Shown: positions 28,269 through 61,402 of the stretch, in pieces | Numbering within the stretch: the first letter of the stretch is position 1 | Layout of the letters: each line of letters opens with the position of its first letter | Source of the DNA: a virus | Reading direction: 5' to 3' (one strand) | Virus record (IMG/VR): IMGVR_UViG_3300015203_000007 | Span: 2,036-66,035 of that record | DNA: 64,000 bases | Notes under the pieces: model-generated | What the model saw: the letters and a program-made list of their open reading frames with translations, nothing else | Databases searched by the model: none | Told to the model about the DNA's origin: nothing | Made by a program: the position numbers and the translations under genes

Positions 28269-28797
28269 CGGGTGTTACCTTTACTTCCACTCGGGATGTT
28301 CCGAACTTCTTGGTGATGACCTGATGCACGATCTGACTGTCATCGCGGTAGACGATTCCAGTCATGGCATCTTCCACTGCTCGGGTTAGCTTGGTCGAAT
28401 CGGGACGGCCGGTTGGGTACGGCATCTTCCGCCCCGTTGCGGACAGTGTATACCCATCTGCCTTGAAGTGCGACTTCGGGCGCGGGCGGTAGAAGTCTAG
28501 CTCTAGCACAAGCGGGCCTTCCAAGGGCGGCATCTCGCCCATGAACTTCCCAGCGGCCTGCGCCACGTCAGTCTTCCACTGCGCGCTACGGGGATTGGAG
28601 TCACGCACGAAGCGAACTCCCTTGTTAGACACTCCCGATGTCTTAGAGCCTGCGGGAGCGGACAGTCCGAAGACCGTGAAGCTTACTGCTGTCATTTTTG
28701 GTTCCATCTCAGGAAGCATATCAGACATTTGCACTTCCATAGGTTCCAGAATTGATCGTACCGCACCCGGATTGTATCCCCCTTGCACTCTGGACAT
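28255..28797 (-). CDS. rusA: RusA-like Holliday junction resolvase
   Basis: PAGSK, FYRPRPKSH, RPDSTKLTRAVEDAMTGIVYRDDSQIV. Confidence 0.9.
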   Translation of the reverse strand: MSRVQGGYNPGAVRSILEPMEVQMSDMLPEMEPKMTAVSFTVFGLSAPAGSKTSGVSNKGVRFVRDSNPRSAQWKTDVAQAAGKFMGEMPPLEGPLVLELDFYRPRPKSHFKADGYTLSATGRKMPYPTGRPDSTKLTRAVEDAMTGIVYRDDSQIVHQVITKKFGTSRVEVKVTPVDEY

Positions 28798-53732: not shown

Positions 53733-54932
53733 ATGGCACCAAGAGCAGATGCGTCTTCGGACAGGATCAAAAAGACATTTCTCAAGGGAACAGATATGGA
53801 TTCCGAGAAGGTCGATCTTGTTGTGGAGAGATCACAGGATCTTCAAGAAGTCACCTGTCTGATCGAAGAGCGTCCAGTCGTCATCTTCTCATCGAATGCT
53901 GCCGGAGAGGTAGTAGTCGATGTGAGACAGCAAGACGGAATAAAGCTAGCAGGAGATGTCGGACACGGAGATGATGACAAGAGGGAACTAGCATCTGCAT
54001 GGCTAGAAGGACAGGGTACGAACTGGCGTGATGATGGCAGCGAAGTGGTTTTCACTTTGTCGAAGGGACAGGCTTCCATCGCATTGCCTAAGGCTGACAA
54101 GCCGGGTATCCTCACTCCGACCAACATCCATCCGGTATACGGACAGCCGGATATGCTCTTCGCAATCGCGATGGGTATTGAGTACGGAGATCACACGATT
54201 CTCTCCGGCCCTACCGGAACGGGAAAGACTACGGCATACGCTTTCCTAGCACAGCTACTCAACTGGAATTTCGTCCGCGTACAGATTGACCCTAAGACAG
54301 AGGGTGCTTCTCTCGTCGGCGAATATCTCCCAGTAGGAGCGGGACATTTCGAGTGGTGTGATGGGCCTGTGACTGAGGCAGTAAGACTTTCCAAGGATCA
54401 CCCTACGATCCTAGTCCTGGATGAGCTTTCTCGCATCGGAAATGTGGCAGAGCTTTCGCGTCTCTACTCTCTGCTAGATGACGGTAGGAGACTAGCCATC
54501 CCAGAGAAGTCGCATGAGAACATGGGTGAGCCGGAAGTCATCTTCCCCGGCAAGCTTTACATCGGTGCGACCATGAACCCTGCCGATGATGAAGGAGCGG
54601 ATTACATCGGTGTGCGTGAGCTTGACCCGGCTTTGATGTCGCGGTTCGCATTCGCACCGGAGGTTCACTACCCCACGCCGAAGGTCGAGACGAAGACTCT
54701 CTGTGACCGCGTTCCCGGTCTGTCTCACGCGCACGCGGAGAGAATGGTCAAGCTCGCGAACTCGATCAGGGATTCCGCCGAGATCATGTACCCGATGTCT
54801 TTCCGCGAACTGGTAGCGTGGGCGAAGGCATTCCCCTACTACGGGTTCCAGCCTGCGGCGGAAGTCGCGTTCGTGAAGAAGGCGCATCCCACGTATCAGG
54901 GCGACATCCGGCGCTTGCTCAGCATGGTCTAA
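53733..54932 (+). CDS. MoxR/CbbQ-type AAA+ ATPase
   Basis: LSGPTGTGKTT, VLDELSR, ATMNP, LDPALMSRF, SFREL. Confidence 0.85.
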   Translation: MAPRADASSDRIKKTFLKGTDMDSEKVDLVVERSQDLQEVTCLIEERPVVIFSSNAAGEVVVDVRQQDGIKLAGDVGHGDDDKRELASAWLEGQGTNWRDDGSEVVFTLSKGQASIALPKADKPGILTPTNIHPVYGQPDMLFAIAMGIEYGDHTILSGPTGTGKTTAYAFLAQLLNWNFVRVQIDPKTEGASLVGEYLPVGAGHFEWCDGPVTEAVRLSKDHPTILVLDELSRIGNVAELSRLYSLLDDGRRLAIPEKSHENMGEPEVIFPGKLYIGATMNPADDEGADYIGVRELDPALMSRFAFAPEVHYPTPKVETKTLCDRVPGLSHAHAERMVKLANSIRDSAEIMYPMSFRELVAWAKAFPYYGFQPAAEVAFVKKAHPTYQGDIRRLLSMV

Positions 54933-54941
54933 ACGAATTCC

Positions 54942-54969
54942 TTGACAAGCGTCAAAAGTGTGCTACCTT
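54942..54969 (+). promoter_or_regulatory. sigma70-type promoter of the tRNA array
   Basis: TTGACA-N16-TACCTT, extended -10 TG. Confidence 0.75.
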
Positions 54970-55014
54970 TCAGATATGCCGACCGAGGGGGAAACCCCGG
55001 AGTCGGCTCCACAT

Positions 55015-55049
55015 GCCGGAGGGGTTCCGCAAGGGCCTCTCCGGCACCA
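55015..55049 (+). ncRNA. candidate CCA-ended minihelix RNA
   Basis: GCCGGAGGGG-TTCC-GCAA-GGG-CCTCTCCGGC-ACCA, preceded by the CACAT leader seen before several tRNAs. Confidence 0.4.
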
Positions 55050-55054
55050 AATAA

Positions 55055-55128
55055 TTGGATGTAGCTCAATCTGGTAGAGCGCGCGGTTTGGGGCCGTGAG
55101 GTTGGAGGTTCGATTCCTCTCATCCGAA
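55055..55128 (+). tRNA. tRNA-Pro(TGG)
   Basis: CGCGG-TTTGGGG-CCGTG anticodon arm; TTCGATT T loop. Confidence 0.9.
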
Positions 55129-55194
55129 CTAGGTTTGTCCACCTTCCCTAAAGCAGTTGATAACGTGGATGACGGTAGGAAAGACTACGCGAAT

Positions 55195-55268
55195 GGGGGT
55201 TTAGCTCAGTCCGGGAGAGCACCTGCCTTGCACGCAGGGTGTCGTGGGTTCAAATCCCACATCCTCCA
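55195..55268 (+). tRNA. tRNA-Ala(TGC)
   Basis: CCTGC-CTTGCAC-GCAGG; G3:U70, A73. Confidence 0.92.
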
Positions 55269-55282
55269 CTGCACGACCACAT

Positions 55283-55354
55283 TGCCGATTAGCTCAGCGG
55301 GAGAGCACTTGGTTTACACCCAGGGTGTCGGGGGTTCAAATCCCTCATCGGCTA
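55283..55354 (+). tRNA. tRNA-Val(TAC)
   Basis: CTTGG-TTTACAC-CCAGG; U1-U72 mismatch. Confidence 0.9.
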
Positions 55355-55418
55355 CTAGAACTTCGGCAGCGGTCGCGCTGAATCGAGCACCGAAGGGCAA
55401 GTTCACGTCAGCGCACAT

Positions 55419-55491
55419 GGAGACGTAGTTCAATCGGCAGAACACCCCGCTGTCTACGGGGAGGTAGAGGGATCGTAACCCTTCGTCTTCG
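55419..55491 (+). tRNA. tRNA-Asp(GTC)
   Basis: CCCCG-CTGTCTA-CGGGG; G73; atypical ATCGTAA T loop. Confidence 0.88.
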
Positions 55492-55506
55492 CTCTAAACA
55501 TATCTC

Positions 55507-55579
55507 GCCGGGTTAGTTCATCTGGTAGAACGCCTGTTTTGTACTCAGGAGGTGGCGTGTTCGAGTCGCGCATCCGGCG
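55507..55579 (+). tRNA. tRNA-Thr(TGT)
   Basis: CCTGT-TTTGTAC-TCAGG. Confidence 0.85.
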
Positions 55580-55593
55580 CTTAGTAGATCGAC

Positions 55594-55607
55594 GTTCTTT
55601 GACAACT
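55594..55607 (+). promoter_or_regulatory. boxA-like antitermination element
   Basis: GTTCTTTGACAACT resembles rrn boxA (GYTCTTTRAMAA). Confidence 0.5.
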
Positions 55608-55645
55608 GACTTGTGAAATGCCGCGCGTCATTCTTACGCGCACAT

Positions 55646-55717
55646 GCCGTTGTTGCCGAGTGGCTAAGGCAATGGGTTGCAACCCCATTAACACTGGTTC
55701 GATTCCAGTCTTCGGCT
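55646..55717 (+). tRNA. tRNA-Cys(GCA)
   Basis: ATGGG-TTGCAAC-CCCAT; U73. Confidence 0.88.
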
Positions 55718-55739
55718 CTCAGAGAGAAAGGGGAGAGCA

Positions 55740-55958
55740 ATGAGCAAGATGGATATGACTCGCGCGAGTGACAAGATCGAGAGAAGCTTGTACATGCCGG
55801 GGGAACATCTCAGCACGGGTAAGCGCAAGATCATCTGCGAGAGAGCAATGGATATGACGTGGCTCACCCTTTCGGGTGATAGCGGAATACCGTTCGTCAC
55901 GATAACGTTGGATGCAGAAGGACACTTCAATCTTGAAGTGGATCAGAGCCAACTCTAG
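55740..55958 (+). CDS. hypothetical protein inside the tRNA array
   Basis: GGGGAG RBS, 72 aa. Confidence 0.55.
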   Translation: MSKMDMTRASDKIERSLYMPGEHLSTGKRKIICERAMDMTWLTLSGDSGIPFVTITLDAEGHFNLEVDQSQL

Positions 55959-55969
55959 AGAGAGAGCAA

Positions 55970-56626
55970 ATGAAAAGAATCATCGCAGGACTGATCGCTG
56001 TCTGCGCACTAGCACTTCCAAGTATCGCTTCGGCGCACTCTGGAACTGTGACGTGTGATACGACGAACGTCGTGTTCACGTATCACGCTGACTTCCCGCT
56101 GACAACTACTGTCACGGAGAAGGCAGGGGCAGTAACGAAGACGTTCAGTGTTCCCGCACACACGGCTGTTACGGATACCATTCCGTACACACCTTCCGGC
56201 GGAAACAACACTATCGTCGCTAGCTCTACATGGGTCGGTGGCGGGAGTATCCCTCCCACTACCCTCATCTGTGTCGGCCCGCCCCCTACGCCGAATCCTA
56301 CGCCCCCTGTGCAGCCTCCTGAGTGTGCAGCGGCGTGTCCCACTCCTACCCCTCCGGCGCGTCCTTTCTGCCCAGTAGGCGAGTCCGAGCGCAGCTACGA
56401 AAACGGGATCCTGACGTGCGTAGTCACGGTGATCGTGAATCCACCGGTTCCACCAACTCCGGTCTTCCCGCTTTGCCCGAAGGGAACTACTTCTCTCGGC
56501 GTCAAGCACGGAGTGATGGTTTGCCAGAAGGTCAAGATCAAGGTGGTCTACCGCGTCACGAAGATCGTGCGGTGGGTGCAATGGTGCCCGCTTCCGCCGC
56601 ATCACAAGCCCGGTGTCGCCGGTTAG
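55970..56626 (+). CDS. secreted Pro/Cys-rich protein
   Basis: Signal peptide MKRIIAGLIAVCALALPSIASA; beta-rich domain; two P.CP.G......G...C repeats. Confidence 0.7.
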   Translation: MKRIIAGLIAVCALALPSIASAHSGTVTCDTTNVVFTYHADFPLTTTVTEKAGAVTKTFSVPAHTAVTDTIPYTPSGGNNTIVASSTWVGGGSIPPTTLICVGPPPTPNPTPPVQPPECAAACPTPTPPARPFCPVGESERSYENGILTCVVTVIVNPPVPPTPVFPLCPKGTTSLGVKHGVMVCQKVKIKVVYRVTKIVRWVQWCPLPPHHKPGVAG

Positions 56627-56663
56627 GCGAGGGGCGCACCTGAACGTCCTGCTATCGACGGGC

Positions 56664-56691
56664 TTGACATCCTGGGTAAGATGTGTAAACT
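56664..56691 (+). promoter_or_regulatory. second tRNA-array promoter
   Basis: TTGACA-N16-TAAACT, 10 nt upstream of tRNA-Arg. Confidence 0.65.
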
Positions 56692-56701
56692 GCCCTTACA
56701 C

Positions 56702-56774
56702 ACCTTCTTAGCTCAGCGGACAGAGCATCTGGCTACGAACCAGACGGTCGGGGGTTCGATTCCCTCAGAGGGTT
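56702..56774 (+). tRNA. tRNA-Arg(ACG)
   Basis: TCTGG-CTACGAA-CCAGA. Confidence 0.9.
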
Positions 56775-56921
56775 CTTGACAACGCGGGTTGCAAACCGCA
56801 GTCAACCTACGCGACAGAGGTTACACGTCGTCGGTAAGTAATGCTATCGTTACGAGCATTGCCCCTCTGTGGTGGGGAAACGCTACTGTCAGTGGGTTGA
56901 TCGCCTCGACTGACACCCCAA

Positions 56922-56994
56922 TGGCTTGTAGCTCAGTTGGTAGAGCGCCACTCTGATACGGTGGATGCCGAAGGTTCAAGTCCTTCCAAGCCGA
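56922..56994 (+). tRNA. tRNA-Ile(GAT)
   Basis: CCACT-CTGATAC-GGTGG. Confidence 0.9.
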
Positions 56995-57084
56995 TATTCG
57001 CTCGAATTCTAGAAGTCGCGCGAAGACGCTCCTACTAGGCCAGTAGGAGATCCGGCGTACCGATGGGTAGTAGCCGGACTATTT

Positions 57085-57158
57085 GCCTCCGTAGCTCAAT
57101 TGGTTAGAGCAAGGGCCTCTTAAGCCCGAGGTTGTAGGTTCGAGTCCTACTGGGGGTA
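57085..57158 (+). tRNA. tRNA-Lys(CTT)
   Basis: GGGC-CTCTTAA-GCCC. Confidence 0.9.
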
Positions 57159-57324
57159 CTACTCTTCATCGGCTCCAAAAGATGTGTCAGCATCGAATTA
57201 GAGTCGGCAAGCATTGGACTGACATCCCGTGTGAGTTTCGGGGGCTATACCCGAGTGGAGAGCTAAACTAACCGTCCGGCAAGGTGACGGCGATGTTGAC
57301 ACTAAAAATCCTTGCTCTAAACTT

Positions 57325-57397
57325 TGATCGGTAGTTCAGTAGGTAGAACGCACGGCTGTTAACCGTGATGTCGCAGGTTCGAGTCCTGCTCGATCAG
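57325..57397 (+). tRNA. tRNA-Asn(GTT)
   Basis: CACGG-CTGTTAA-CCGTG; G73. Confidence 0.92.
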
Positions 57398-57411
57398 CTA
57401 GTACCACACAT

Positions 57412-57486
57412 GGTGTCGGGGGAGCCTTTGGCGGCTCTGTCAGGTTGTGACTCTGACCGCAGCGAGTTCGATTCTCGTCCTTCACC
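57412..57486 (+). tRNA. tRNA-His(GTG) with encoded G-1
   Basis: TCAGG-TTGTGAC-TCTGA; G-1:C73; two acceptor mismatches. Confidence 0.8.
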
Positions 57487-57564
57487 CTACCGGGCAGTTG
57501 CCTTCTCTTTGATGGGGATTAAAGCTGACGCAACGCGAGTGACATTGATCTCACCCGGTTTCAT

Positions 57565-57639
57565 GGACAAATAGCTCAGCTAGGTAGTAGCGCCTGTTTG
57601 AAGCACAGGAGGTCGCACGTTCGATTCGTGCTTTGTCCA
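57565..57639 (+). tRNA. tRNA-Phe(GAA)
   Basis: CCTGT-TTGAAGC-ACAGG. Confidence 0.9.
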
Positions 57640-57653
57640 CTGCACGACCACAT

Positions 57654-57734
57654 GCGTTAGATGGGTGCTGGATTACCCAAGAGCCTGTAAAGCTCCCTCC
57701 TTCGGGAATGTTGGTTCGAGTCCAACCTGGCGCA
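57654..57734 (+). tRNA. tRNA-Tyr(GTA), class II
   Basis: GAGC-CTGTAAA-GCTC; variable arm TCC-TTCG-GGA. Confidence 0.88.
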
Positions 57735-57749
57735 CTCTGTAGTACATAT

Positions 57750-57824
57750 GCCGTGTTGGGCGAAGTTGGTTAAGCCGCCACCCTCTCAAGGTGGAAATTG
57801 CGGGATCGTACCCCGCACACGGTA
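57750..57824 (+). tRNA. tRNA-Glu(CTC)
   Basis: CCACC-CTCTCAA-GGTGG; atypical ATCGTAC T loop. Confidence 0.85.
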
Positions 57825-57828
57825 CTCT

Positions 57829-57907
57829 GGGGGTGTAATGGTATCGACAGGGAGTAAAGCCGCACGCGGAGACTCCTTGCATCCGGGTTCGATTCCCGGC
57901 ACTTCCA
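57829..57907 (+). ncRNA. tmRNA-like RNA reduced to the tRNA-like domain (no mRNA-like domain)
   Basis: 5' GGGGGTG-TAATGGTATCGAC (stemless D loop, TCGAC); P2 AGGGAGT/ACTCCTT; T arm CCGGG-TTCGATT-CCCGG; acceptor with G3:U70 and A73. Confidence 0.75.
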
Positions 57908-57960
57908 TAGAGGCAGATGCCGCCGTACGCGCGACCAAGATTCTGTAAAGCATCAAACAT

Positions 57961-58032
57961 GCCGTGTGAGACAATTGGATGAGTTGCCGGACTTTCACTC
58001 CGGAGAAACGGGTTCGATCCCCGTACACGGTG
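57961..58032 (+). tRNA. tRNA-Glu(TTC)
   Basis: CCGGA-CTTTCAC-TCCGG. Confidence 0.9.
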
Positions 58033-58053
58033 CTTTGTGATATGATGGGGCGC

Positions 58054-58743
58054 ATGAAGATCGTTCCCATTTCGGACACCCACGGATTGCATCGGTGGGT
58101 TGGAGAGAGAGCACGCGGGGCCTATGGTCGCGACGTTCCTAAGATCCCGATGGGCGATGTCCTGGTTCACGCCGGAGACTTCTCCGGCTTTGGCGAGCGC
58201 ATGGAAACCATTGATTTTGCTGATTGGGTTATGAGCCTACCGCACAAGCACAAGGTTGTGATCGCGGGAAACCATGACTGGTTCGCTTTCAACAATCCGC
58301 TCGAAACGGAACAGCATTTCTCTAGGCGCGGAATCCATTACCTCTGTGATTCTGCTGTGACAATCGAGGGTGTCAAGTTCTATGGCACTCCCTACACGCC
58401 CATGTTCTATGACTGGGCTTTCATGGAGAGCGAGGATGAACTTGCAAAGAGATACGCGAAGATCCACACTGACACGGATGTCCTCGTCACTCATGGCCCA
58501 CCCTACGATATCCTTGACCAGAATCAACAGAAGATCCGTACGGGTTCGGTTGCCCTTGCTAATCGGATCGCTCAAGTACAGCCGCGACTCTCAATCTTCG
58601 GCCACATCCATGAGGGTAGGGATCCGCGTTGGACTTCTCAGGGGACATTTCAAGGTGACAAAACGACGTTCTATAACGTATCGTTTTTGAACATGGCATA
58701 CAAGCCTTACGGCATTCCTCAGCCGGTGATTGAACTTGGTTAA
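58054..58743 (+). CDS. calcineurin-like metallophosphoesterase (MPPED-like)
   Basis: SDTHG, HAGD, GNHD, THGPP, GHIHE; real start after tRNA-Glu. Confidence 0.9.
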   Translation: MKIVPISDTHGLHRWVGERARGAYGRDVPKIPMGDVLVHAGDFSGFGERMETIDFADWVMSLPHKHKVVIAGNHDWFAFNNPLETEQHFSRRGIHYLCDSAVTIEGVKFYGTPYTPMFYDWAFMESEDELAKRYAKIHTDTDVLVTHGPPYDILDQNQQKIRTGSVALANRIAQVQPRLSIFGHIHEGRDPRWTSQGTFQGDKTTFYNVSFLNMAYKPYGIPQPVIELG

Positions 58744-58882
58744 GCCACTCATCACCCGGCAGGATGTTGTCACGGGATGGTGTCCCGCCTGTAACAAGAT
58801 CACTCAGATGATCTGGACTAGATCACATACTCAGTGCGCTAACTGCCACACAATCGTGCAGTCGTGCTGCGAAGGAAACTAG
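58736..58882 (+). CDS. 48-aa Zn-ribbon peptide (not in ORF track)
   Basis: MVKPLITRQDVVTGWCPACNKITQMIWTRSHTQCANCHTIVQSCCEGN. Confidence 0.55.
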   Translation: MVKPLITRQDVVTGWCPACNKITQMIWTRSHTQCANCHTIVQSCCEGN

Positions 58883-58954
58883 CCCACTTAGCTCAGTGGA
58901 CAGAGCGGCGGTCTTCTAAGCCGCTGGTCGGGGGTTCGACTCCCTCAGTGGGTT
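58882..58954 (+). tRNA. tRNA-Arg(TCT)
   Basis: GCGGT-CTTCTAA-GCCGC. Confidence 0.9.
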
Positions 58955-58958
58955 CTAC

Positions 58959-59041
58959 GGATGATTGGCAGAGCGGTAATGCAGCAGATTGCTAATCTGT
59001 AAAGGGTCACTCCTTCGAAGGTTCGATTCCTTCATCATCCG
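58959..59041 (+). tRNA. tRNA-Ser(GCT), class II
   Basis: GCAGA-TTGCTAA-TCTGT; long variable arm; G73. Confidence 0.9.
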
Positions 59042-59064
59042 CTCAACGAGAGAAAGGGGAGGAA

Positions 59065-59460
59065 ATGTTCTACACGTTCTATCAGAACAACAGCGGTGGA
59101 TCTTTCCATGAGAGTCACGGGATCTGCAATCACGTCATCGTGGAGGCAGATAATGCCAATGACGCAAACAACCGCGCAGAGAACATCGGCCTGTACTTCG
59201 ATGGTTGCAACAAGGGCTTTGACTGTTCGTGCTGCGGAGATCGTTGGTACCCTGCATGGCGCGAGGAAGGCACTCAGAAGCCCATGATCTACAGCTTGGT
59301 CGTGGAATCGGGAACGGAGGACACGCTCAACATGATCGACTGGTGCGATTACGTAGCGTGGATTCATTACAAGGATGGCCGTGTCGAAGGCTTCAAGTTC
59401 ATCGACGGCGTGCTAGAGAACGTCGTGGACGGAGAGCCGAAGAAGGAACTGAATCCCTAA
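59065..59460 (+). CDS. conserved phage hypothetical protein
   Basis: MFYTFYQNNSGGSF...VIVEA...AN..AE.IGLYFDG...DCSCCGDRW. Confidence 0.7.
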   Translation: MFYTFYQNNSGGSFHESHGICNHVIVEADNANDANNRAENIGLYFDGCNKGFDCSCCGDRWYPAWREEGTQKPMIYSLVVESGTEDTLNMIDWCDYVAWIHYKDGRVEGFKFIDGVLENVVDGEPKKELNP

Positions 59461-59505
59461 GGGGATTAGGGTGGGGCGCGACATACCCTGAAATAACGCG
59501 CACAA

Positions 59506-59589
59506 GCGCGAGTGGCGAAATGGTAAACGCGCCGGGTTCAAAACCCGGTGGAGTAGCCCTCCATGTGGGTTCGATTCCCACCTTGCGTA
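59506..59589 (+). tRNA. tRNA-Leu(CAA)
   Basis: CCGGG-TTCAAAA-CCCGG; long variable arm; A73. Confidence 0.9.
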
Positions 59590-59620
59590 CTCAGAACGAA
59601 GGTGCTACAGTACGATCAAT

Positions 59621-59705
59621 GCGTGAGTGGCGGAACTAGGTAGACGCGCCAGGTTTAGGCCCTGGTGGTGGAAACATCGTGCGGGTTCGATTCCCGCTTC
59701 GCGCA
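59621..59705 (+). tRNA. tRNA-Leu(TAG)
   Basis: CCAGG-TTTAGGC-CCTGG; long variable arm; A73. Confidence 0.9.
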
Positions 59706-59737
59706 CTAAGACCTTCACAAGTCGGTTGAGAGAGAGA

Positions 59738-61402
59738 ATGTACAACTACGGAGCGGCTAGCGCGCTGACTCAGCGCAACATGGCTAACACAGTGAGGCAA
59801 ACAGCTTCGCTTGTGTCCGGCCATGACAGGATCAAGGAGAAGCAAGGCGAGAAGTGGGCCTGCATTCCGGAGCTACGCATCATTACGTGGCGTCCGACGA
59901 ATCCTTACAAGCCTGAACTAGTCCTCTCTGACGAAGAGGCGATGTGGCTGACGATCCATGAAGCTGCACACTTGGAAGTATCTGGTTCATACGATTCTCC
60001 TGAGTGGCCCGATGTTGATGATCCGGAACGCTTCCGGCGCTTTGTCAACTTCGTGGAAGACATCCGCATCGAGCGGTGGGCGAAGCGTAGATTCCCTGGA
60101 ACGGTGGATGTTTGCCATCGCTTCAACAAGTATTTCGACCAGCTACTTCTTAACACTGTGGCAGATCCCACTAACCCGGATATGCACTTGGTCGATCAAG
60201 TGTCATTCGGGTACTTGAACATGGCTGAGGATTTGCTAGTATGGGGCAGCGAAGAGTCCCGCGAATTCGTGGCAAAGACGTGGGATGAGATCGAGCAAAT
60301 CTGCCTGACATCGAAGAGCACTGCGGAAGTAGCCTCGCGCGTGCTACCGATCTATCAGCAGATCATGGAGGATCCGCCACCTACTGCGCCACAGAAAAGC
60401 CCCGCATCCAGTCCGCAAGGAGAGGCAGTAGGTGGCGGGGCTGACGGGGAACCGAATGAGGATGGCGAAGAAGGCGATGACGGTATGTATCGCTCTTCTG
60501 ACAAGGAGGGTAATCCTTTCCGTGGGATGTCTCTTGACGAACTCCTGAATGCCATCGCTAAGGATGCTGGCCCTGAGGTTGCGCGTAAGCTACGTGACTC
60601 TGCTCAGAGCGAGAAGAAAGAACAGCGCAATGCAGGGAACCTAGCTGCACAGGGAATTGGACTTGACGCTAGCACTGAGCGTGGAGATTCCCGTGACTGG
60701 GACAACGCGAAGTCTGAGATGAGAGGACACATCAATACTCTCTCTAGGCGTTTGCAGACACGCTTGCGTCACAATGAACAGGACACTTACTCGCGTAAGC
60801 TTAAGCGTGGATCCTTCGATGGCAGTAAGGCACATCGTTCTCTGAGAGGCGACAATAGGATCTTCAAGAAGAAGATTCAGATTGGACGCGCAGACTACGA
60901 TTTCGTGCTGACATTCGATTGTAGCGGATCACAGGCCCCACGGGTCAAGGAGATGCTAAAGTCGGCTGTGGTGGCGTCTGAGGCCATCGAGAGGGCAGGT
61001 ATGGGTCTGAGTATGATTACCTGGGATTCGGGCATGAGACACTTCAAGCCGTGGAACTCCCCGATCTCGCGCGTGAAGTCCAGGATGGGTTGGGATCTCA
61101 TGCACGCTGACGGAGGTACGGTGGAGGGATACGCTCTCCGCGTGGCCGAAGACCTGATCCGTCCGCGTCTCAACATGGGGCGCAAGGTCGTGCTCATCAC
61201 CATGACGGACGGGATGACTTCCGCGCCGGAAGAGTCCAAGGCGATCATGGCCGATCTCAAGCGCAAGGGAGTGCAGTCGGTCGGCATCGGTGTGATGTAC
61301 GCGGCTCCCCAGCATTACGACATCAAGCTCAGTGTCAATAACGCCGAGGAATTGGCGGGGGTTCTCCCTGGCATTCTCAAGCAAGTTGTCAAGCGTGGCT
61401 AA
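59738..61402 (+). CDS. vWA (MIDAS) domain protein with N-terminal HExxH region (CobT-like MoxR partner)
   Basis: IHEAAH; NFVED.RIE; DCSGS, GGT, TDG MIDAS; start after tRNA-Leu. Confidence 0.85.
   Translation: MYNYGAASALTQRNMANTVRQTASLVSGHDRIKEKQGEKWACIPELRIITWRPTNPYKPELVLSDEEAMWLTIHEAAHLEVSGSYDSPEWPDVDDPERFRRFVNFVEDIRIERWAKRRFPGTVDVCHRFNKYFDQLLLNTVADPTNPDMHLVDQVSFGYLNMAEDLLVWGSEESREFVAKTWDEIEQICLTSKSTAEVASRVLPIYQQIMEDPPPTAPQKSPASSPQGEAVGGGADGEPNEDGEEGDDGMYRSSDKEGNPFRGMSLDELLNAIAKDAGPEVARKLRDSAQSEKKEQRNAGNLAAQGIGLDASTERGDSRDWDNAKSEMRGHINTLSRRLQTRLRHNEQDTYSRKLKRGSFDGSKAHRSLRGDNRIFKKKIQIGRADYDFVLTFDCSGSQAPRVKEMLKSAVVASEAIERAGMGLSMITWDSGMRHFKPWNSPISRVKSRMGWDLMHADGGTVEGYALRVAEDLIRPRLNMGRKVVLITMTDGMTSAPEESKAIMADLKRKGVQSVGIGVMYAAPQHYDIKLSVNNAEELAGVLPGILKQVVKRG

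Follow-up and report, generated by a model that had tools for sequence, protein, structure and literature searches.

We identified a 79-nt gene for a tmRNA reduced to its tRNA-like domain (TLD) at positions 57829-57907 (plus strand) of the window, a 64,000-nt stretch of the IMG/VR virus record of an uncultured soil phage. Judged by its sequence and predicted fold, this mini-tmRNA is a further member of the known TLD-only family of the type found in mycobacteriophage DS6A, a family that is under-annotated and little studied. The element is a real gene, neither a chance fold nor a decayed tRNA. Comparison of its relatives shows a structure under purifying selection, with the alanine identity and SmpB-contact positions conserved. 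As to function, we lean towards a stand-alone gene whose RNA competes for host SmpB and stalled ribosomes and so would block or divert tagging, by a mechanism that we infer below. The viral record is ~64% complete, and the sequencing runs containing this DNA are all DNA metagenomes.

Structure and identity of the element

The mini-tmRNA consists of an acceptor stem, a stemless D-loop analogue, a 7-bp P2 helix closed by a short cap, and a T arm (Table 1), which agrees base for base with the anatomy given in the initial annotation, including G3:U70 and A73. The acceptor stem is 7 bp long and carries a second wobble, G4:U69, besides G3:U70. From the sequence, the 3' end of the element does not encode CCA. 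In the fold, all pair probabilities of the acceptor, P2 and cap helices are at least 0.89. The 16-nt closure of P2 described initially holds in length, but it is not a plain loop; it is made up of the A-rich bulge AAAG and a 3-bp hairpin with a tetraloop (pair probabilities 0.89-0.94). With the numbering checked on E. coli ssrA, the T at 57844 is the counterpart of tmRNA U17 and the A at 57881 that of A334.

No anticodon arm and no tag frame can be read in the 79-nt element, and no stop codon was seen by eye in its three forward frames. Pseudoknots PK1 to PK4 are absent, the RNA being 79 nt overall and the interior of the 374-position RF00023 model being skipped. The fold z-score of the element taken alone is modest (-2.4). 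A pairing of UCGAC with GUUCGA in place of the T arm (MFE -31.9 vs -28.2 kcal/mol) was rejected, the covariation backing the T arm.

Table 1. Features of the mini-tmRNA and promoter-like sites of the array, in window coordinates
Feature	Position	Strand	Remarks
Promoter-like site, TTGACA/TAAACT	56664-56691		Hexamer pair identical to that at 57296, 16-nt gap; directly before tRNA-Arg
Promoter-like site, TTGACA-16 nt-TAAACT	57296-57323	+	Upstream of sub-array Asn-His-Phe-Tyr-Glu-mini-tmRNA-Glu
Acceptor stem, 5' strand, GGGGGTG	57829-57835	+	G3 in G3:U70 pair; pair probabilities at least 0.99
D-loop analogue, TAATGGTATCGAC	57836-57848	+	Stemless, 13 nt; tmRNA signature GG..UCGAC
P2 (helix 2a), 5' strand, AGGGAGT	57849-57855	+	Pairs 7/7 with 57872-57878, one G:U
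Cap (apical module), AAAGCCGCACGCGGAG	57856-57871	+	16 nt; AAAG bulge, hairpin CCG-CACG-CGG, then AG
P2 (helix 2a), 3' strand, ACTCCTT	57872-57878	+	Partner of 57849-57855
Linker, GCAT	57879-57882	+	Family form GGAC; two of four bases differ
T arm, CCGGG stem, TTCGATT loop, CCCGG stem	57883-57899	+	Canonical
Acceptor stem, 3' strand, CACTTCC, and discriminator A73	57900-57907	+	57900-57906 pairs with 57829-57835; A at 57907

A covariance model (R1) was built from 29 viral sequences with the window element left out. R1 matches the element at 74.6 bits (E 1.2e-17), the next match in the window being a tRNA-Ala at 18 bits; it also matches Streptomyces phage BRock at 86.8 bits and DS6A at positions 28478-28557 at 58 bits. 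The tRNA model RF00005 gives the element 24.2 bits against a cut-off of 29, with the D and anticodon regions skipped as unaligned inserts, and a tRNA is not the better fit. These scores support the original reading of a TLD-only tmRNA that has neither tag frame, pseudoknots nor anticodon arm.

The general Rfam and ARAGORN searches proposed with that reading agree with it only in part. When RF00023 was run on the whole record, the element scored 47.7 bits (cut-off 47, model positions 1-374) and the phage's own tRNA-Ala 23.9 bits. However, plain cmscan at the gathering threshold listed no tmRNA match, and in E-value mode tRNA was best in the clan at 24.2 bits; the RF00023 score is borderline and pipeline-dependent. 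ARAGORN called 20 tRNAs in the window and made no tRNA or tmRNA call at the element, and the mitochondrial tmRNA model RF02544 had no match at E up to 10. The 5' half of the element matches the Rfam tmRNA_permuted consensus almost letter for letter. The two-piece (permuted) models, RF04321 and its clan members, gave partial matches only (15.4 and 12.9 bits, cut-off 47), and the gene order is standard, not permuted, with both strands of each helix within one RNA.

A family of TLD-only tmRNAs

Relatives were collected by two scans of IMG/VR, one with the cap 14-mer and one with anchors in the D loop, linker and T loop at mini-tmRNA spacing, which together gave >70 distinct relatives. An anchor-only regular expression, unfiltered for pairing and covering both scans and BRock, yields at least 74 distinct sequences. 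Among the matches listed, P2 pairs at 7/7 positions in 38 of the 74 relatives and at 6/7 in 23, while a mismatched-partner control peaks at 3/7, and at least 65 different combinations of P2 strands occur. The acceptor stem pairs at 7/7 in 67/74 of the listed relatives, every one of which (67/67) has G3:U70. The discriminator is A in 72/74 and the T stem pairs at 5/5 in 72/74, again among the matches listed.

Alignment A2 comprises 29 sequences pre-selected for pairing, and the main weight lies with the unfiltered counts above; in it, pairing holds in 98% of cells, compared with 69% when shuffled and 38-50% with slid partners. All seven P2 pairs show double-sided changes in this alignment and two T-stem pairs covary, so that the covariation initially sought among homologous phages is strong in P2. 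Acceptor pairs 4:69 to 6:67 vary freely across the family. Because the searches found no close relatives of the window phage, the covariation was taken from the RNA family and not from sister genomes.

The loop and linker nucleotides are also well conserved. In 58 relatives among the matches listed, T16, G18, A19 and the linker A53 are invariant; for G52 and C54, conservation reaches 90% or more. Mapped on ssrA, the invariant T16 and A53 of the listed matches correspond to U17 and A334 of E. coli, the nucleotides that Trp122 of SmpB contacts on the ribosome (Guyomar et al. 2021, PMC8363625). The window copy has the linker GCAT where at least 90% of the relatives listed have GGAC, and it carries GGTATCGAC, not GGTTTCGAC. 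The change turns one non-canonical A.G pair of Rfam's P2 into A.C. Either the GCAT linker or the G4:U69 wobble could weaken SmpB binding or charging of the window RNA.

The caps are diverse in sequence and similar in plan. A hairpin of at least 3 bp follows an A-rich 5' bulge in 46 of the 53 distinct caps among the matches listed, built from 22 different stems. At this point of P2, the Rfam tmRNA consensus likewise shows a bulge, GAa. Since the two bulges coincide, the mini form looks like a tmRNA truncated just above the bulge of helix 2.

Megablast of the region against cultured phages gave no match, and in a distant blastn search of these phages BRock alone matched over the element. The BRock copy is unannotated; its P2 differs by compensatory changes and its cap is nearly identical to that of the window. 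Further unannotated copies occur in the cultured Streptomyces phages LuckySocke, pSt2308 and Alone3, and the copy in Streptomyces phage GiJojo lies under a 'hypothetical protein' CDS. Among the matches listed, the GC content of the family loci ranges from 31 to 70%, and almost no similarity links the ORFs of the 64 loci carrying the element to those of the window. A search of limited sensitivity in 141 sampled Mycobacteriales genomes gave one strong match, which we take to be prophage-borne because terminase genes adjoin it. No mini form was present among 120 bacterial matches to the 5' pattern of the window's TLD. We attempted to infer a host from this 5' half and rejected the approach, since tmRNA genes from many phyla show the pattern, which is therefore not diagnostic.

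In BRock, ARAGORN makes a 'tmRNA*' call of 626 nt (L007, 2975-3600, tag AARQVLAEL) that is probably an artefact; it appears to combine the 5' end of the mini-tmRNA with the T arm of tRNA-Ser, 500 nt distant. Calls of this kind could mislead annotators. More generally, this RNA class is missed by ARAGORN and by standard Rfam scans, and a dedicated covariance model would recover it. At five GC-rich IMG/VR loci (L013, L043, L037, L039 and L058), a ribosome binding site and a short conserved reading frame (56-74 aa, recurring motif A(T/C)..EW(R/S)) were observed 12-100 nt after the mini-tmRNA. This ORF may be a linked gene in that group.

The initial annotation held that phage tmRNAs keep the tag frame and implied that the element was novel. 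The literature has overtaken both points. A phage tmRNA without a CDS has been documented since 2009/2014. The list of Hudson, Lau and Williams (2014) includes the tmRNA of 'Mycobacterium phage DS6A (TLD only)', which is tmID 11587 of the tmRNA Website (PMC4131195), and a 2025 tmRNA database paper repeats the CDS-less DS6A tmRNA and adds CDS-less plastid forms (PMC11915505). The DS6A and window RNAs are alike in size, in the acceptor stem with G3:U70, in the UCGAC D-loop analogue, in the short closed P2, and in the T arm and A73. Their caps are almost identical (CCGCACGCGG), both are phage-borne and both are matched by R1. However, the two phages are unrelated, and the unannotated DS6A site stands alone before a DNA polymerase III gene whereas the window gene lies in an array of 19 tRNA genes. 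The window further differs in its linker, GCAT in place of the usual GGAC, and in its G4:U69 wobble. Taken alone, the window is a small gain: one more member, in a tRNA-array setting, of a family described once in the literature.

The element and standard tmRNA (RF00023; E. coli ssrA, 363 nt) have the TLD in common, with the counterparts of U17 and A334, the alanine identity set, and a helix 2 whose base bears a purine bulge. Missing from the element are the ~280 nt that comprise all of pseudoknots 1 to 4 together with the resume codon and the tag frame. The CDS-less tmRNAs of jakobid mitochondria (RF02544) and some plastids are likewise reduced to the TLD with no tag frame (PMC11915505), but they are not viral and are of independent origin, and RF02544 has no sequence or structure match to the window. 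The same design appears in engineered TLD fragments, in which helix 2a is capped by a short loop (Gutmann 2003, Bessho 2007 and Neubauer 2012, cited in PMC8363625 and PMC11090510; Shimizu and Ueda 2006, discussed in PMC3895274); in vitro, these RNAs bind SmpB and EF-Tu, move into the A site and take over the peptide. Those are laboratory constructs, whereas the phage gene is natural and selected and keeps the A-rich bulge and mini-hairpin.

The tRNA array and its neighbours

The mini-tmRNA lies inside a phage tRNA array, as originally described. ARAGORN identifies 19 plus-strand tRNA genes at 55055-59706, and the mini-tmRNA starts 3 nt downstream of tRNA-Glu(CTC). The twin promoter-like sites in Table 1 suggest that the array is transcribed as several sub-operons, and the second of them would be the likely origin of the mini-tmRNA precursor transcript; the total of promoter-like sites across the region is no higher than chance. 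Since this site heads the local sub-array and an identical one heads the previous, the mini-tmRNA is probably co-transcribed with the tRNAs. The ORFs that overlap the mini-tmRNA continue through the adjacent tRNA genes and are regarded as spurious. A tRNA-array setting is the minority case, because 48 of 64 relatives among the matches listed have no tRNA gene within 2 kb.

Several other features of the array were observed. In its leader (54933-55054), a TTGACA promoter-like box precedes two strong hairpins, the second with ...GGCACCA at its end; the MFE over the 122 nt is -51.3 kcal/mol. RF00023 gave a very weak match there, at window positions 54988-55014. The array is flanked by an AAA_5/MoxR-type ATPase gene (53733-54932; PHROG 'porphyrin biosynthesis', CobS-like) and a gene for a 591-aa protein (59627-61402), which matches a PHROG 'cobalamin biosynthesis protein' weakly and was read as CobT-like. 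On these assignments the two genes appear to be a CobS/CobT-like pair. No relative of the AAA_5 neighbour was found in IMG/VR. Within the array, directly 3' of tRNA-Glu(TTC), is a gene for a calcineurin-like metallophosphoesterase (58045-58743); its listed start at 57979 overlaps the tRNA, and the true start is probably ~58045. Between tRNA-Ser and tRNA-Leu lies a gene for a DUF7296 protein (59065-59460; Pfam E 4.5e-37) with ~31% identity to a 90-aa ORF of another mini-tmRNA-bearing IMG/VR locus (L081). A 661-aa ORF of this phage has no match among cultured phages, and the best match of its DnaB-like helicase has only ~24% identity.

Possible functions

The expression, processing and charging of the mini-tmRNA, its binding to SmpB and its effect on the host are inferred as follows. 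The mini-tmRNA would be transcribed together with the neighbouring tRNAs; host RNase P would cut the 5' end, and after 3' trimming the host CCA-adding enzyme would finish the 3' end. G3:U70 and A73 form the alanine identity set recognised by AlaRS, through which the host enzyme would alanylate the RNA. The conserved D-loop and linker nucleotides would bind host SmpB, and with EF-Tu the mini-tmRNA would vie for SmpB and stalled ribosomes with the full-length tmRNA of the host. As it offers neither a resume codon nor a tag frame, its net effect in infection would be to block or divert host trans-translation and SsrA tagging. No SmpB gene was found in the ~64% complete record, and further trans-translation genes could lie in the missing part.

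Published work on similar RNAs fits several of these steps. A truncated tmRNA together with SmpB and EF-Tu binds the ribosome (PMC8363625). A DS6A-like TLD-only molecule strongly inhibits tmRNA in E. coli, perhaps by titrating SmpB, and both an SmpB decoy and a tag-less, alanine-adding rescue have already been discussed for the DS6A homologue (PMC4131195; for the inhibition also PMC11915505). The inhibition reported by Mao et al. 2009 was independent of charging, as related by Hudson et al. (PMC4131195). Since that inhibition needed no charging, pure titration leaves the strictly kept alanine identity set unexplained.

The strict retention of the charging determinants suggests that the mini-tmRNA is charged, and it keeps alive the reading that the RNA takes part in productive rescue. 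In such a rescue, alanyl-mini-tmRNA with SmpB and EF-Tu would accept the nascent chain in a stalled ribosome and another factor would then free the ribosome, so that proteins translated from broken mRNAs, whether of the phage or of the host, would end in alanine and ribosomes would be recycled for the phage. We consider this unlikely overall, though it has points in its favour. Among the matches listed, G3:U70 (67/67) and A73 (72/74) are kept while the neighbouring acceptor pairs vary, which argues for charging. A TLD-only RNA accepts a peptide in vitro (Shimizu and Ueda 2006, discussed in PMC3895274), and CDS-less tmRNAs with a presumed rescue role persist in jakobid mitochondria and some plastids (PMC11915505). 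However, a ribosome offered neither resume nor stop codon would be left at an empty A site after the transfer, and no release route was found in the ~64% complete record in the form of an RF-1/ArfB domain or Pth. The sole in vivo result cited for this type of RNA is inhibition (PMC4131195, PMC11915505). A decoy for some other host factor that recognises the shape of tmRNA or tRNA, such as RNase R, tRNA-cleaving defence nucleases or defence proteins with SmpB-like domains, is improbable. CoCoNuT defence systems have SmpB-like OB folds predicted to bind tmRNA (PMC11090510), a phage anti-CRISPR protein acts jointly with tRNA and tmRNA fragments (PMC11662646), and among the matches listed, members of the family are found in widely differing phages, for the most part away from tRNA arrays. 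But the argument is by analogy alone, the element is not linked here to any defence or counter-defence gene of this kind, and the conserved positions are those important for SmpB and AlaRS.

In known two-piece tmRNAs a free strand pairs with the coding piece, and about a third of the genome, in which a separate phage mRNA-like piece might be encoded, is missing from the record. We nevertheless think it very improbable that the element is the tRNA-like half of a split tmRNA: a single 79-nt RNA contains both strands of its acceptor stem and of P2, and with a hairpin closing P2 no strand is left free for pairing. No tag-like frame was found in any array spacer, and RF00023 matched only the element and tRNAs on the record, with no ARAGORN tmRNA call and no gathering-level Rfam match; a separate mRNA-like piece, the outcome that the initial annotation said would speak against it, was not found in the ~64% complete record. 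That the element is a functionless remnant, either of a tRNA-Ala gene or of a captured ssrA fragment such as an attP remnant, is hardly credible and is largely refuted by the covariation. There is a weak full-length Rfam tRNA match, and ssrA is an integration site of many phages, which carry its 3' end. Yet the tRNA score of 24.2 bits is reached below the cut-off of 29 and by skipping the D and anticodon arms; an attP copy would have only the 3' part of ssrA, whereas the element has both gene ends; and no tyrosine integrase was found in the ~64% complete record. Family-wide covariation and invariant functional positions indicate selection on the RNA.

Returning to competition for SmpB and stalled ribosomes, the family may not act as a passive SmpB sponge. 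A tentative proposal, which we would not put forward as the probable one, is that its members are charged RNAs that enter the ribosome and add untagged alanine to stalled chains. Alanylation would be needed for this, as G3:U70 and A73 are strictly kept in phages of very different hosts. If the proposal is true, alanine addition would possibly be repeated since the A site stays empty, and the A-rich bulge and mini-hairpin would be a contact to the ribosome or the SmpB tail that replaces the mRNA-like domain. The phage would then re-program ribosome rescue and spare proteins from SsrA-dependent proteolysis.

Trans-translation is the main bacterial ribosome-rescue pathway and a drug target. Were a natural, widespread phage RNA of ~80 nt to block or re-route this pathway, it would serve as a ready-made tool and hint at why ribosome rescue and tagging matter to phages.
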